Assembly: GCA_963701095.1 (NCBI GenBank)
Contig: OY969564.1
Coordinates: 1,600,001 to 1,664,000 of the forward strand
Direction: 5' to 3'
From: an uncultured Methanoregulaceae archaeon
GTDB taxonomy: Archaea; Halobacteriota; Methanomicrobia; Methanomicrobiales; Methanospirillaceae
Length of the DNA stretch: 64,000 nucleotides
The notes under the pieces were generated by a model, which saw only the letters and a list, made by a program, of their open reading frames with translations, made no database searches and was not told the origin of the DNA. Positions 15,580 through 41,898 of this stretch are shown piece after piece. The position numbers and the translations under genes were made by a program. Position 1 is the stretch's first letter. Every line of letters begins with the position of its first letter.

Positions 15580-15610
15580 GATTATGACAAAATAAAAAAA
15601 AAGATCTTTT

Positions 15611-34258: not shown

Positions 34259-34852
34259 TTACTGGGAAAAAGACTTTCCGAATGCAAATCCCTTTTTATA
34301 GGCCGCATCAAGGAGATCCGGCCGCGTCGTAATATCCCTGATTTTATCCATATCACTGATCAGCAGTTCATCCTGGAACCGGCAATCGATAATATCAAAA
34401 AATGCCTGCGTCGTAAGTTTTGCACCCACAAACACTTCGGGAATGTCCATCCCGGAGATACAGATGAATATACCGGCACGCCTTTTTTTTTGGTCCGATG
34501 GGACAAGAGATTGTTTCCGTTGGTATTTGGCCATGAAAAAGACCTGGAACCTGTCCATAAACGATTTGAGTGTCCCGGGGATTCCCATAGTCATCACCGG
34601 TGTGGCAAGGATCAGACCATCCACATCCACAAATTTCGGATACATCTGTTGCATGTCATCATCAAGGACGCAGGTCTCGTGTTCACGGCAGAAAAACATT
34701 TCCTGACATCCCTGAAAATCAAGATTCGTGACGGTGATGAGTTCCACCGTGCATCCGGCTTCCCTGGCACCCCGCACTGCCTGTGCCAATAATTGTGCAG
34801 TATTACCCTCATGGAGGGGGCTGCCGAGGAGAGCGATTACCTTTGGTGCCAT
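34259..34852 (-). CDS. Flavodoxin-fold iron-sulfur flavoprotein (Isf-like)
   Basis: LGSP..GNT, CQEMFFC.....C, ATPV, LKSFMDR. Confidence 0.88.
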   Translation of the reverse strand: MAPKVIALLGSPLHEGNTAQLLAQAVRGAREAGCTVELITVTNLDFQGCQEMFFCREHETCVLDDDMQQMYPKFVDVDGLILATPVMTMGIPGTLKSFMDRFQVFFMAKYQRKQSLVPSDQKKRRAGIFICISGMDIPEVFVGAKLTTQAFFDIIDCRFQDELLISDMDKIRDITTRPDLLDAAYKKGFAFGKSFSQ

Positions 34853-37855: not shown

Positions 37856-37938
37856 GATACTACCGGATCAGATAGGTTGTTTCTGTCTTATTTGTCTTCG
37901 CGTCATGTTTATCACTTTTTCCTGCGATGTACATTCCT

Positions 37939-38238
37939 ATGAGTATTGAAGAAGTAAGGTCGGAGATAACTCAGATCGACGAAGAAATCATCCACCTCAT
38001 CGCACAACGGCAGGCCCTTGCCGGGAAAATTGCCGTCATTAAGCAGGAACGAGAGATTCCCATACATGACAACCAACGCAAAATTGACGTTCTGGATTAT
38101 GTGACAAAACTTGCAAAAGCAAACCATATCGATCCGGTCCCGGTGAAGGGAATCTTCGAGACACTTATAGGTATGAATGAGAAAGCACAACGGGCGGCTT
38201 TGGAAAAACCCGTCCCGAAAAAAAGATCCCATAAATAA
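37939..38238 (+). CDS. Chorismate mutase (AroQ type)
   Basis: IEEVRSEITQIDEEIIHLIAQR...IAVIK....PIHD..R. Confidence 0.82.
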   Translation: MSIEEVRSEITQIDEEIIHLIAQRQALAGKIAVIKQEREIPIHDNQRKIDVLDYVTKLAKANHIDPVPVKGIFETLIGMNEKAQRAALEKPVPKKRSHK

Positions 38239-38295: not shown

Positions 38296-39387
38296 TCACA
38301 GAAGTCGAGGCCCAAAGATAATGAAAATCCCTACAAGAATCATTGCGAGGCCGATAACAACCCGGAGCTTCCGGCGATGATCCACCCTCCATGCATTGAC
38401 CCGTTCCGGCGGAATTCCAATTACAACTGCGAGAAGGATGATTATGAGCGGGAGAATGAAAATAACGTTGTAGAGAAGCAGGTAAGGAATCCCTTCTGAG
38501 AGCGTCATTGTGCTGCTCATCAGGCTGAGGATGGTCAGGTAGATTCCCCCAGTGCAGGGAAGTTCGAAAATTCCCACAAGAACCCCCAGAATAAATGCAG
38601 CAGGAAGCGTTGCTGTAACAATATATAGTTCGATGATCTCTTTTTTCGAAGCAGGGATGGCAAGGATAAATCCCTCCTTCTTTACGGCGGCGTCAATAAT
38701 ATAGATCAAACCAAGAACGATGGCGATAAGTGCCGCTGCCGTCGATATCAGACTCGAAACCCCGGATACCTGCACAAAAGAGAGAACCCCTATACCGGAG
38801 AGGAAATAAAACAAAAAGACGGCTGCGATATAGGTAAAGCCTACCATCAGGACCTGCCGGCGCGTCTGGAGCGCTATAATGGAAAGGAGGAGGATGACAA
38901 GAACCGAAAACGCACACGGATTAATACTATCAATCCCGGCGCAGAATATGACCAGTGGAATGGTCAGAGCTGTGAAGGTGCCAGGACAGTTTTTCGTCGC
39001 GGTTACATTCACCTTCCCGTATGAAACGTTCGAAGGAGAAGCCATATCTTCCTGGATTACCTGTTCGAGCTGGTCTCTGATCTGATCTTCACCTACAAGA
39101 GCCTGATCACCAATGATGACAGTAGGAACTCCTGCTGACGTGATACCCAGTTTTTGATCCATCGCAAGGAAAAATGCCTGGTTGGTGGCATTATGGTAGA
39201 CCTCGAGCTGTTCAAGTTCAAGATCCGGGTACCGGGCCTGTATTTGTAAGATGAACGGTTTTATGTCGTCGCAATGACTGCACCCCTCACCGTAGAAAAA
39301 ATATCCAATTATCGTAAGGTTTGGAGCAGCTGTTTCGAGAGAAGAGGGGGAAGATTGGGATATTGAACCTGACAAATCCGTTGTTAC
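38296..39387 (-). CDS. Thioredoxin-like (CSHC) domain plus CcdA/DsbD-type transmembrane domain; no convincing start of its own, probably the 3' part of a fused gene
   Basis: FFYGEGCSHC, GVP, DSINPCA and ELPCTGG (the paired TM cysteines). Frame is open from the A10 run onward; TTG at 39375 is the only near start. Confidence 0.85.
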   Translation of the reverse strand, partial: VTTDLSGSISQSSPSSLETAAPNLTIIGYFFYGEGCSHCDDIKPFILQIQARYPDLELEQLEVYHNATNQAFFLAMDQKLGITSAGVPTVIIGDQALVGEDQIRDQLEQVIQEDMASPSNVSYGKVNVTATKNCPGTFTALTIPLVIFCAGIDSINPCAFSVLVILLLSIIALQTRRQVLMVGFTYIAAVFLFYFLSGIGVLSFVQVSGVSSLISTAAALIAIVLGLIYIIDAAVKKEGFILAIPASKKEIIELYIVTATLPAAFILGVLVGIFELPCTGGIYLTILSLMSSTMTLSEGIPYLLLYNVIFILPLIIILLAVVIGIPPERVNAWRVDHRRKLRVVIGLAMILVGIFIIFGPRLL

Positions 39388-39788
39388 TTTTTTTTTTCAA
39401 TGACCCGAAGGTATGCCTCGAGTTTATTCGGTATATCCTGATCCCCGACCAGTACCGTTTTGCCAATAACAATTTCAGGTACACCGGGGGGAGTGGAAAT
39501 ACCGGCCTGGGCGTTTACCTGTGTATAGATCTGCTGGTTTGTCTGGTTATACCAGACCTCGAGCATCCGGATATCCACATCAGGATACTCTTTTGTCATA
39601 TTTTCCATAAACGGTTCGACTTTAGCACAGTGGGGACATCCCTGGCCATAGAAATAATAGACTATACTATCGTTTACGGGTAATGAGACGTTCGTCGGTG
39701 CTGACGGTGCAAAGAAAACAAGGTATGCCACACTCCCTGCAGCAACGACGATAAACAATGCAATAATAAATTGTATGATTTTATCCAT
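39384..39788 (-). CDS. Membrane-anchored thioredoxin/glutaredoxin-like protein (CPHC)
   Basis: N-terminal TM helix, YFYGQGCPHC, EVWYNQTN, GVP; ends EKKK-stop on an A10 run. Confidence 0.85.
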   Translation of the reverse strand: MDKIIQFIIALFIVVAAGSVAYLVFFAPSAPTNVSLPVNDSIVYYFYGQGCPHCAKVEPFMENMTKEYPDVDIRMLEVWYNQTNQQIYTQVNAQAGISTPPGVPEIVIGKTVLVGDQDIPNKLEAYLRVIEKKK

Positions 39789-39866: not shown

Positions 39867-40743
39867 CTACTGGAGGGAGATCATTGTCCCCACTCCATCG
39901 CGAGTGAAGAGTTCGAGAATGAGGTTATGCTCTACGTTGCCGTTGATAATATGAGCGAACCTGACACCGTTTTCGACAGACTTTAATGACAGAAGTCACT
40001 TTCGGGATCATTCCCTCCCCTATGGCCCCAGAAGAAAGGAGAGAATCTGCTTCGCTGACAGAGAGTTTGCGGAAGATATGGGTTCGTTTCGCATCCATCA
40101 CGCCGTCAACGTCTGTCATATTGATCAACTTGTATGCCTTGAGTGCTACGGCAATGTCACCTGCAGCAGTATCTGCATTTATGTTAAGGTTACCTCCGAA
40201 CCTATCAATGGCAATAGGTGAGATGACCGGGATATAGCCCTCTCCAAGGAGTGTATTAAGAAGTGCAGGATCGATCCATTCGATTTCGCCGACACGCCCG
40301 AGATCTACTTCCTGTTCCACGCCTTCTACTTTGACTTTCTGGAGATCCATCTTCTTTGCGAGAATGATATTCCCGTCGCTTCCTGAAAGCCCCACACCCC
40401 TGGCTCCGCATTTTGCAATAAGGGAGATGATTCCCTTGTTGATCTTGCCGACAAGTACCATCTGGGCAATCTCAAGTGTTTCCGGATCCGTTACGCGCAA
40501 ACCCCCGACAAAGACCGACTCTTTCCCGAGTGCCTTCATCTTCTCGGTAATCTCAGGACCTCCGCCATGGACTAATACAACCCGGATCCCCACGTAGTGA
40601 AGGAGCACAGCGTCCTTTATGGCGTTTTCAAGGACAACCGGATCGACCATAGCATGCCCACCAAGCTTGATCACGATCGTTTTACCGTGAAACTGCTGGA
40701 TATAGGGAAGTGCTTCCATCAGCACATCTTCGCGTTTCATCAT
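39867..40743 (-). CDS. argB: Acetylglutamate kinase; extra base near 39982
   Basis: [29 protein letters not shown]. Corrected tail [30 protein letters not shown]. Confidence 0.93.
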
Positions 40744-41898
40744 GTTGTGTACTTCCCGTTGATTTCAACATATTTTTCGGTGAGGTCACAACCCCACGCT
40801 GTAGCTTCTTCTTTTCCCGCTCCAAGATCGAGCTCGAAGATAACCTTGTCTCCGCGCATAGCTGCCTTCAGCTTTAGTCAGGTCGGCAATAATCTCCCCG
40901 GATTTCACCAGGGGGTACTTGTTATTTCCGTCGCTAATCCAGAGCGAGACAGCGTTCGGATCGAATTTCACGCCCGCACGACCGGCAGCTGCGATGACAC
41001 GGCCCCAATTGGGATCCTCCCCGTAAACCGCTGTCTTCACCAGCGGCGATTCGATAACGACCCGGGCAACTTTTGCGGCAGCAGCCTCTTTTGTGGCGCC
41101 TCTGACGGTGACTTCGAGCAGCTTGCTTGCCCCTTCGCCATCGGCGGCAATCTGTTGCGCGAGTGATCGGCAGCACGTCTCGAGTATACCTGAGAATTCC
41201 CGGGGATTTACCTTCCCGGATTCCCCGGTTGCAATGCAAAGTGCAATGTCGTTTGTGCTCATATCGCCGTCTACAACCACCCGGTTAAATGTTCGGGTCG
41301 TAGCGAGCTTGAGCGCCTCTTTAAGGGACTTTTCATCAATCGATGCATCGGTGCAGATAAACGCAATCATGGTCCCCATATTAGGTGCGATCATGCCGCT
41401 TCCCTTAGCGATGGCCCCGATGGTGAAATCTTCACTTTCGACAAGAGCATGCTTTGGCTTGAGATCGGTAGTCATGATCGCACGGACTGTACTATCCTCG
41501 GCATCGGGTGTTGAAGTGAGGTTCAGAGCAACATCTGCACACTGGCGCCGGATAAGGGGCATGTCAAGGTACCGGCCAATAACCCCGGTGCTTGCTACCC
41601 CTACCGAATTACTGTCCACGCCAAGGGCTGAACCGGCATATTCCGTCATTGTGACAGCATCTTCGTATCCCTTCGTACCGGTATATGCATTCGCGCAGCC
41701 GCTGTTTGCGATGATCGCATCCAGTCTGCCTTTTTTTATCTGCTTTCGCATCAGTTCAATCGGTGCCGCCTTGGCAAGATTGGCAGTAAATACGCCAGCG
41801 GCCGTTCCGCTCGCCCGGATGAGGGCGAGACCGAACTTTCCTTCCTTTACACCGTTTGCGGTGACTCCTTTTACTGCACAGAGACTCTTAAAGGACAT
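40740..41898 (-). CDS. argJ: Ornithine acetyltransferase ArgJ; extra base near 40870
   Basis: [41 protein letters not shown]. Corrected tail [19 protein letters not shown]. Confidence 0.93.

Follow-up and report, generated by a model that had tools for sequence, protein, structure and literature searches.

The stretch of archaeal DNA analysed here, 64,000 nucleotides (nt) of contig OY969564.1 from an uncultured Methanoregulaceae archaeon (hereafter the window, taken at its full length), carries on its minus strand a locus of two open reading frames (ORFs) that meet at a run of ten adenines (A10). The first, ORF1, encodes a membrane-anchored thioredoxin (Trx1), and the second, ORF2, lies in the -1 frame and encodes another thioredoxin (Trx2) followed by a CcdA-like membrane domain. 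As suggested by the comparison with related loci, non-standard decoding of this -1 genotype very probably produces a fusion of all these parts. The evidence leans to transcriptional slippage over ribosomal -1 frameshifting, and we rate the chances that transcription is the main level of slippage as somewhat better than even. The initial annotation of this DNA, made from the letters alone, had proposed that a single locus gives both a short thioredoxin and a long fusion by recoding at the A-run, and the comparative evidence presented below supports this proposal.

In the mechanism that we propose, the two frames would be expressed as a single unit, with programmed recoding at their junction. 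Translation by the standard rules would yield a membrane-anchored, extracytoplasmic Trx1 protein of 134 residues, ending right after the A-run, while a fraction of expression would cross a run of nine to eleven adenines (A9-A11 among relatives) into the -1 frame and give a protein of about 500 residues. The order of this long product would be anchor, Trx1, linker, Trx2 and a six-helix CcdA-like thiol-disulfide transporter. Its most likely origin would be the addition of one extra A to the transcript by RNA polymerase, and some ribosomal -1 slippage on the same run may contribute. What the sequences show directly is the conserved anatomy of the locus and its evolutionary pattern; slippage itself, its level and the ratio of the two products are inferred.

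Conservation of the frame break among relatives

A second reading of the window bore out the initial description of the junction. ORF1 starts with the ATG at 39788 and ends ATT GAA AAA AAA AAG TAA; its A10 run (39397-39388) is bordered by G at either side and contains the heptamer A-AAA-AAG in phase with ORF1. The downstream frame is indeed -1 and open from the run to 38296, the end of its stop codon (38298-38296), and it can be reached only via a -1 shift or via one extra A in the mRNA. Taken by itself, the A10 run is within chance, since the A9 pattern has four overlapping matches in the window where 1.8 would be expected, and 18 of 100 shuffled sequences contain at least as many, so that its significance comes from conservation among relatives. 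The assembly, a single 2.6-Mb contig with an estimated completeness of 86%, does carry indels, as the initial annotation had cautioned: the 3' end of the neighbouring argB (39925-40020, minus strand) is frameshifted relative to a continuous ortholog in locus L002, with the conserved tail in the next frame, probably through an assembly indel situated away from any long homopolymer. With an indel-prone assembly the window alone cannot decide whether the frame break is real, but its relatives can.

Relatives were drawn from a same-genus sample of 24 genomes, a scan of metagenome contigs and a scan of species-representative genomes. All 16 tight junctions between a Trx frame and a Trx-CcdA frame in the same genus (14, plus L034 and L035) are in the -1 frame with A9 or A10. 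The metagenome scan returned 80 loci, 30 of them with one Trx (some on incomplete contigs) and 50 with two; among the latter, 43 are -1, all with A9-A11, seven are in frame and none is +1. Another 80 loci came from the species-representative genomes, which were titled Methanoregula, Methanoregulaceae or Methanomicrobiales, with the exception of three loci binned as Pacearchaeota or Woesearchaeota. Here, 45 of the 48 tight two-Trx loci are -1 with A9-A11 (16 of these 45 junctions duplicate loci already counted), two loci are in frame with A7 only, two have three Trx domains in a single frame and lack a run, five show a wide two-gene arrangement and 25 have a single Trx. Locus L131 of the same scan combines a -1 break at an A9 junction with a second indel downstream at a T9 run. 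This second break lies about 120 nt 3' of the junction, inside the Trx2 motif (ISAFFF/YGDGCSHC needs T8), and is probably a homopolymer error of that assembly.

Pooling of 14 same-genus, 43 metagenome and 45 species-representative junctions gave a set of 102, which corresponds to 86 distinct sequence contexts. The second ORF is in the -1 frame in all 102. Among the distinct junctions the run is A9 in 57, A10 in 26 and A11 in 3, and never shorter than nine. The run has been kept among orthologs, though synonymous codons could break the homopolymer; elsewhere in these genes, AAA makes up 62% of the Lys codons (114 vs 70). A zero-frame stop follows within six codons of the run in 85 of the 86 distinct junctions, the 86th being a frame-assignment artefact whose zero-frame stop in fact lies 5 nt beyond the run. 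In all related loci ORF2 is intact, down to a protein identity of about 40%. The alignment of orthologs, which had been named as a check on the prediction, thus displays the -1 break, the A9-A11 run and the early zero-frame stop in the 102 pooled junctions and in two further loci of the same genus, and the pattern of the relatives is neither one of constant in-frame fusions nor one of constant gene pairs with their own starts.

On the strength of this comparison, the frame break is no assembly error. The contrary explanation, that an A11 was miscalled as A10 or that the window holds a recently broken pseudogene, draws on the indels and the estimated completeness of the assembly described above. 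Yet the same direction of the break recurs in 86 distinct sequences from many assemblies and studies, complete and short-read ones included, so that sequencing error cannot be its cause; errors would scatter both ways and would not coincide with the loss of a start codon and an anchor. In addition, a contig with zero differences from an independent study (X6) agrees with A10 and ends 5 bases past the run. Pieces from X5 and X9 belong to 90-95% relatives, break within the variable linker (joint 39303 to 39383) and carry no information on the A10 length; the possible source read set agrees with the window all along but is not independent evidence. A miscalled A11, which the initial annotation had held to be equally consistent with the data, is now very unlikely in view of the relatives and the zero-difference contig. 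For the family the artefact reading is effectively refuted, and its probability as a whole is close to negligible.

Starts, natural controls and history of the two reading frames

If ORF2 were an ordinary second gene, its product would be an anchor-less Trx2-CcdA protein made by reinitiation or from a weak start, which in the window would be the TTG at 39375. The initial annotation had described a Ser/Pro/Thr linker with neither an ATG nor a signal peptide near the 5' end of ORF2, and this description holds: ORF2 begins KKKVTTDLSGSISQSSPSSLETAAPNL, no hydrophobic segment lies 5' of its CSHC motif, and the sole TTG is preceded by most of the linker stretch VTTDLSGSISQSSPSS. From the run to the first active-site Cys, the ORF2 frame contains no ATG, GTG or TTG in 63 of the 86 distinct junctions. 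The remaining 23, which an ordinary second gene can call upon, hold TTG in 17 cases, GTG in 9 and ATG in 2. One sublineage (L044-L048, L052, L118, L120, L121, L122) has a TTG that overlaps the zero-frame TGA (A9 GAA TTG AGT GA), and through this 4-nt stop-start overlap reinitiation could add to slippage in these loci.

Two ordinary genes would leave both the run and the fixed -1 relation without a role. The Trx1 and Trx2 motifs lie 278 to 368 nt apart, with 15 different spacings that are all 2 mod 3 (85/85), which means that indels between the motifs, linker included, come only in threes and that the -1 relation is never lost. This spacing suggests that both ORFs are read as one unit; by comparison, the five two-gene loci show all three frame relations (-1, +1 and 0). 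Topology points the same way. Arg/Lys-rich loops of the membrane domain alternate with uncharged ones, and the positive-inside rule, read from the sequence, would place the N-terminus of this domain, and hence Trx2, outside the cell. An external Trx2 requires an export or anchor segment, and ORF1 alone supplies one, the segment FIIALFIVVAAGSVAYLVFF being the only candidate of this kind 5' of either Trx domain. Its own sequence, and homologs that have such a segment directly before Trx-CcdA, suggest that it acts as the anchor. Since ORF2 has neither a start codon nor an export segment of its own, the shift would be the only route by which its product could be made and inserted. Together with the form taken by true gene pairs (see below), these features make two ordinary genes a very improbable explanation.

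Relatives that do have two genes are built differently. In three genomes of the same genus, a spacer of 100-130 nt precedes a second gene that starts at an ATG of its own and encodes a separate anchor (MEKTHKIFLILLAA...), and ORF1 ends with ELKKRS or ELEKRT before the stop, or reads ELKKTGTDG..., the run being broken (GAATTAAAGAAACGC). In-frame fusions form another natural control. Database proteins include double-Trx fusions of 490-502 residues as well as triple-Trx forms of 636-638 residues and a partial one of 571 residues (P0017, P0020, P0055, P0095, P0113; loci L157 and L190); the triple-Trx forms carry a Lys-rich N-terminal extension and have all three Trx domains in tandem before the CcdA-like domain. 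At the junctions of in-frame fusions the protein reads LDRKSKSG, EQRGNLTG or LDKKRLNN, with A7 or no run. In-frame double and triple Trx-CcdA proteins exist, which shows the fusion to be viable as a protein. Other families in the order had been considered as carriers of an in-frame Trx-Trx-CcdA arrangement and were rejected, as the ORFs concerned carry a single Trx.

Phylogenetic trees place these forms within the diversity of the recoded one. In an IQ-TREE analysis of 31 sequences, the recoded form is a paraphyletic grade of a 20-row clade (97/95), and two-gene and some single-gene forms are nested deep within the recoded clade (98/96). A quick, midpoint-rooted FastTree analysis of 153 sequences distributes 79 recoded rows over both halves of a 123-row clade; the in-frame forms without a run make up a small nested clade with L050, and the A10 in-frame contigs are isolated tips. 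Some single-Trx rows of this second tree are contigs ending inside ORF2 (L062, L070, L084, L089), and the single-Trx label is unreliable inside the recoded clade. The recoded form is the widespread and probably the ancestral state, with split and in-frame forms nested inside. The in-frame and two-gene forms would then be derived minorities without the long run, bar four A10 in-frame contigs. The simplest history would be that of an old recoded state resolved a few times, either by a fixed extra A and decay of the run or by a second gene that gained its own start and anchor. One small clade, in which an in-frame A10 form (L050) stands beside forms decayed to A7 plus G (L111, L123), looks like a series leading from the recoded state to a hard-wired fusion.

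Level of the proposed slippage

A number of features are better accounted for by transcriptional slippage. Among the 86 distinct junctions every codon phase is found at the start of the run, and the next base is G, C or T. With codon phase and next base varying and a run of at least nine being constant, length is the conserved feature. Stops are also unusually placed: among 81 distinct post-run sequences, 99% have an early stop (within six codons of the run) in the zero frame, 81% have one in the +1 frame and 80% have both, against 24%, 17% and 3%, respectively, for randomly chosen positions in these genes. The junction counts include three rows with mis-assigned frames (L059, L113, L153). The zero-frame stops of L059 and L113 are close to the run. 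Typical stop motifs after the run are GCAGTAACTGA, GAATTGAGTGA and GTAACCCCTGA. Stops in both other frames are expected if transcripts with n-1 and n+2 A are made as well, all of which would give a near-identical short protein.

Several points weigh against slippage by RNA polymerase. An in-phase heptamer A-AAA-AAN, of the X-XXY-YYZ type, is present in all 86 distinct junctions and fits programmed -1 ribosomal frameshifting too, in which the tRNA-Lys on A-AAA-AAA/G/C/T would slip back one base and give the same products. A zero-frame stop immediately 3' is a feature of many frameshift cassettes, and ribosomal frameshifting is the sole recoding mechanism shown for an archaeal cellular gene, fucA1, in the part of PMC8211752 considered here. 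In the window itself there is no early stop in the +1 frame, where the first one comes after 33 codons. Poly(A)/(T) tracts of 8-9 are described as over-represented in the coding genes of a Methanoregula genome (PMC2831843, in part), and longer A-runs raise frameshifting in Escherichia coli reporters in which the two levels were not told apart (PMC3711429, in part). Our literature searches found no demonstration of programmed transcriptional slippage by an archaeal RNA polymerase, and among the sequencing runs listed for the locus there is no RNA run. Four contigs (L041-L043 and L050) are in frame with A10, and related -1 sequences have A9; the out-of-frame A9 relatives of L041-L043 are L045, L048, L052 and L118, and L045 (out of frame) and L043 (in frame) have nearly identical flanks. 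A protein from the A10 lineage, P0006, reads through IEKKKV, a case known from the protein alone. In-frame contigs that are one A longer mean that length changes at the DNA level occur or are mis-assembled. Lastly, the junctions share a phylogeny, so that their counts overstate independence.

Some other features of the locus are not those expected of ribosomal frameshifting. No stimulatory structure was detected among pseudoknot-free folds: in the 60 nt after the run, the mean folding z over 84 junctions is -0.35 vs 0.06 in controls, which is not beyond chance, and the 60 nt upstream of the run give a mean z of -0.54. The hairpin that the initial annotation had pointed out at 39379-39358 is present, but its role as a signal did not stand, with a folding energy of -3.6 kcal/mol and a z of +0.74, weaker than shuffles and not conserved. 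The ribosome would need a run of only 7 nt, yet all 86 have nine or more; the codon phase of the run and the base that follows it are not conserved, and early stops in the +1 frame would have no role. In E. coli, the slipperiness of A-AAA-AAG is attributed to the missing tRNA-Lys(CUU). The present genome encodes both tRNA-Lys(CUU) and tRNA-Lys(UUU), which removes this reason. Overall, programmed ribosomal frameshifting appears rather unlikely to be the main explanation, and slippage of RNA polymerase is the reading that we prefer.

Long A/T runs are sparse in the long open frames of this genome, which also speaks for transcription. The share of such runs that lies in long open frames falls from 0.80 for 6-mers to 0.40 for 9-mers, with 0.895 of the genome covered by such frames, by a crude measure made without annotation that is hard to square with the over-representation described in PMC2831843. 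The genome has 49 A/T runs of at least nine, about 20 of them in long open frames, and these 20 or so are candidates for other slippage sites or for assembly errors. Selection against A/T runs is evident from length nine in many bacteria, according to the relevant part of PMC1088944. Two further A/T9 runs occur in the window (34483-34491 and 15594-15602), the one at 34483 being inside long open frames on both strands.

The in-frame contigs raise a further possibility, that of phase variation at the DNA level, in which the run would be a hypermutable tract, most cells being OFF for Trx2-CcdA and rare A(n+1) cells ON. Consistent with this, in-frame variants one A longer adjoin out-of-frame sisters (L041-L043 vs L045, L048 and L052; L050) and occupy single, scattered tips of the tree, replication too can slip on poly-A runs (PMC1088944 and PMC3711429, each in part), and early stops in both other frames would fit as well. 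Free switching, however, predicts all three frames, yet at the junction 102 loci are -1, four combine a run with an unbroken frame, and +1 does not occur. Nor would a gene that is OFF in nearly all populations stay intact over about 40% protein divergence, and in loci whose frame was restored and became fixed (L111, L123, L148), only A7 is left of the run. Phase variation is thus an improbable explanation of the locus as a whole.

Predicted products, related systems and implications

Table 1. Features of the two-frame thioredoxin locus in the window (38296..39788)
Feature	Position	Strand	Remarks
ORF1, 134 residues	39384..39788	-	Membrane anchor and CPHC thioredoxin domain; C-terminus ...VIEKKK before the stop; short product by standard decoding
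Hydrophobic N-terminal anchor FIIALFIVVAAGSVAYLVFF (predicted)	39711..39770	-	From translation
Trx1 active site CPHC	39627..39638	-	From translation
A10 run, proposed slippage site	39388..39397	-	GAA AAA AAA AAG in ORF1 frame
Zero-frame stop TAA	39384..39386	-	Directly after A10 run
ORF2, -1 frame, 366 codons	38296..39396	-	Frame opens within the A10 run; encodes linker, CSHC thioredoxin and CcdA-like membrane domain
Ser/Pro/Thr-rich linker VTTDLSGSISQSSPSSLETAAPNL	39316..39387	-	From translation; without hydrophobic segment
TTG	39373..39375	-	Only conceivable independent ORF2 start before the active site; not conserved
Trx2 active site CSHC	39271..39282	-	C..C columns invariant in 35 homologs
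CcdA/DsbD-like membrane domain	38299..38964	-	Invariant Cys in NPC (38916-38914) and PCTGG (38556-38554)
Hairpin named in the initial annotation	39358..39379	-	Present; not supported as a signal

Beside ORF2, on the opposite strand, a small protein encoded at 37927-38238 (plus strand) resembles chorismate mutase (MYIPMSIEEVRSEITQIDEEIIHLIAQRQALAGKIAVIKQ..., named by eye) and has no evident functional link with the Trx-CcdA locus. On the other side, an argJ-like ORF (40786-41898, minus strand) has about 30 C-terminal residues unlike its remainder and overlaps an Arg-rich ORF (40934-41239); its C-terminus may reflect another indel of the assembly.

Both thioredoxin domains carry a CxxC active site. 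ORF1 matches the Pfam family Thioredoxin (PF00085) with 25.1 bits against a cutoff of 23.5, and ORF2 reaches 16.4 bits, below the cutoff. The two domains are paralogs, as had been noted at the outset, residues 44-124 of P0001 sharing 42% identity with the Trx2 region (E 3.9e-24). All 35 homologs share the Trx2 motif F-Y-G-x-G-C-x-H-C and the two membrane cysteines without variation. In the AlphaFold2 model of ORF2 (predicted local distance difference test, pLDDT, 71.5), residues 25-121 adopt a thioredoxin fold, with matches to 7q3j (Z 11.5, root-mean-square deviation (rmsd) 1.5 Å, 81 aligned) and 2e0q (Z 11.2, rmsd 2.4 Å, 85 aligned); Foldseek and VIA-align searches with the whole ORF2 model gave almost exclusively thioredoxins.

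The identity of the membrane domain is less sharply defined. Its best-placed profile is that of Pfam SfLAP (PF11139), with 34.7 bits against a cutoff of 35 and matches in 34 of the 35 homologs. The DsbD_TM profile (PF02683) has no match in the window protein and matches 2 of the 35 homologs (best E 1.3e-4), and the NCBIfam DsbD model gives the window protein an E of 0.006, with 15 bits against a cutoff of 330. Residues N159, P160 and C161, as well as C281, G283 and G284, are invariant in the 35 homologs and P280 is nearly so, all of them within predicted helices. A hallmark of CcdA and DsbD membrane domains is a pair of cysteines, one per helix, in Pro-Cys motifs, and the two invariant Pro-Cys motifs found here fit this hallmark. 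Modelled alone (pLDDT 70.9), the domain is closest to designed helical proteins (best Z 7.6, rmsd 4.5 Å, 91 aligned), and no CcdA is among the fold matches of this model. Sequence and profile searches of the PDB returned Trx-fold chains only, plus two chance-level rows (E 0.65 and 0.83), and no CcdA or DsbD membrane chain. Homologs are named 'cytochrome c biogenesis protein CcdA' in their source records. With profile and fold matches this weak, the domain is described here as CcdA-like and not as an established member of that family.

By analogy with DsbD and CcdA systems, electrons would flow from the cytoplasm to the Cys pair of the membrane domain, then to Trx2, and from there to Trx1 or to free Trx1 and on to substrates. 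DsbD is a three-domain relay, and CcdA works with ResA or CcmG; the thioredoxin partners in these systems are fused or separate, and membrane-anchored. Like them, the locus described here would combine a membrane domain that bears a single Cys in either of two helices with thioredoxin-fold domains outside the cytoplasm; unlike them, its membrane domain is only weakly similar by profile and both Trx domains are N-terminal. To our knowledge, Methanomicrobiales lack cytochromes, which makes a role in cytochrome c maturation unlikely. In no DsbD/CcdA-type system known to us is the balance between partner and transporter set by recoding. A CcdA that works with an external thioredoxin partner has been described in the CcdA-Etrx-MsrAB system of streptococci (PMC3914529, in part).

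Among recoded genes, the closest parallels, as far as the excerpts of the cited sources describe them, are Thermus thermophilus dnaX and Shigella mxiE, two cellular genes in which an A-run of at least nine leads to two product lengths (PMC1088944). Thermus dnaX uses transcriptional slippage on A9, and mxiE depends on the slipped transcript for its longer product (PMC1088944), as is proposed for the present locus. Both differ from the present locus in being bacterial, experimentally shown and of unrelated gene families, whereas this one is archaeal, served by another type of RNA polymerase and known from DNA alone. In Thermus dnaX, moreover, the templated length gives the full-length product and the slipped one the shorter product, the reverse of the arrangement proposed here (PMC1088944). 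Within Archaea, fucA1 of Sulfolobus solfataricus is likewise a cellular gene split into 0 and -1 ORFs with an A-rich slippery site; its full-length protein requires recoding, and -1 frameshifting amounts to about 10% in vitro (PMC8211752). The fucA1 break is reported in two S. solfataricus strains, other Sulfolobales homologs being full length with an A stretch one base shorter (PMC8211752), whereas the break described here is the majority state across a genus. Another difference is that fucA1 has a heptamer, a putative stem-loop and rare codons (PMC8211752), and the present family a run of at least nine and no structure.

A third parallel is offered by the poly-A overlaps of magnesium chelatase genes in Pseudomonas, Delftia, Methanocaldococcus and Methanococcus, a group with archaeal members (PMC3711429, PMC5009743). 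Their cassettes gave 10% with 7 As, 40% with 9 As and 63% with 11 As in E. coli (PMC3711429, PMC5009743). In these excerpts efficiency rises with run length, and slippage may lie at either level, as here. In contrast to the present locus, the protein family is another one, the archaeal members were tested in a heterologous host only, and the early stops in both other frames seen here are not reported in the parts of these sources at hand. A description of the present locus was not found in the literature, though a GeneTack cluster in one supplement of PMC3711429 may hold one.

The locus is systematically mis-annotated. In many gene calls ORF2 begins only with an internal ATG that lies about 78 codons beyond the run, which yields proteins of 286-292 residues from which the Trx2 active site is lost; the window's own call (P0009) has 288 residues, and other homologs are called at about 360 residues from a TTG. 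With ORF2 made to start at an internal ATG, the protein sets of these methanogens would miss an extracytoplasmic thiol-reducing machine of about 500 residues.

According to the portions of reviews considered here, frameshift recoding in archaeal cellular genes has been demonstrated once, for fucA1, and has one further candidate, magnesium chelatase, that was tested in a heterologous host. The locus described here would be a much better conserved case, with 86 distinct variants and with built-in fused, split and run-decayed controls. Poly-A recoding in cellular genes is already known; what is new, to judge by the literature searched, is the gene family, the archaeal order and how widely the site is conserved. 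The stronger claim is that the family represents the first genus-wide, long-maintained programmed transcriptional slippage in Archaea, in which A9-A11 runs would give several transcript lengths and the transcript with one added A would encode a Trx-Trx-CcdA electron conduit, and for this we see the chances as evenly balanced. In this reading, early stops in two frames would funnel all non-productive transcripts into one short anchored thioredoxin. A single promoter would then set the ratio of the free partner to the transporter, and the family would preserve a series from the recoded state through an in-frame state with the run to an in-frame state with a decayed run and, separately, a two-gene split.

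Methanoregula, the genus concerned, includes cultured species. The locus would thereby allow a direct test of whether an archaeal RNA polymerase slips productively on A-runs. As to function, it suggests that these methanogens lead electrons for thiol reduction outward along a path dedicated to this purpose.

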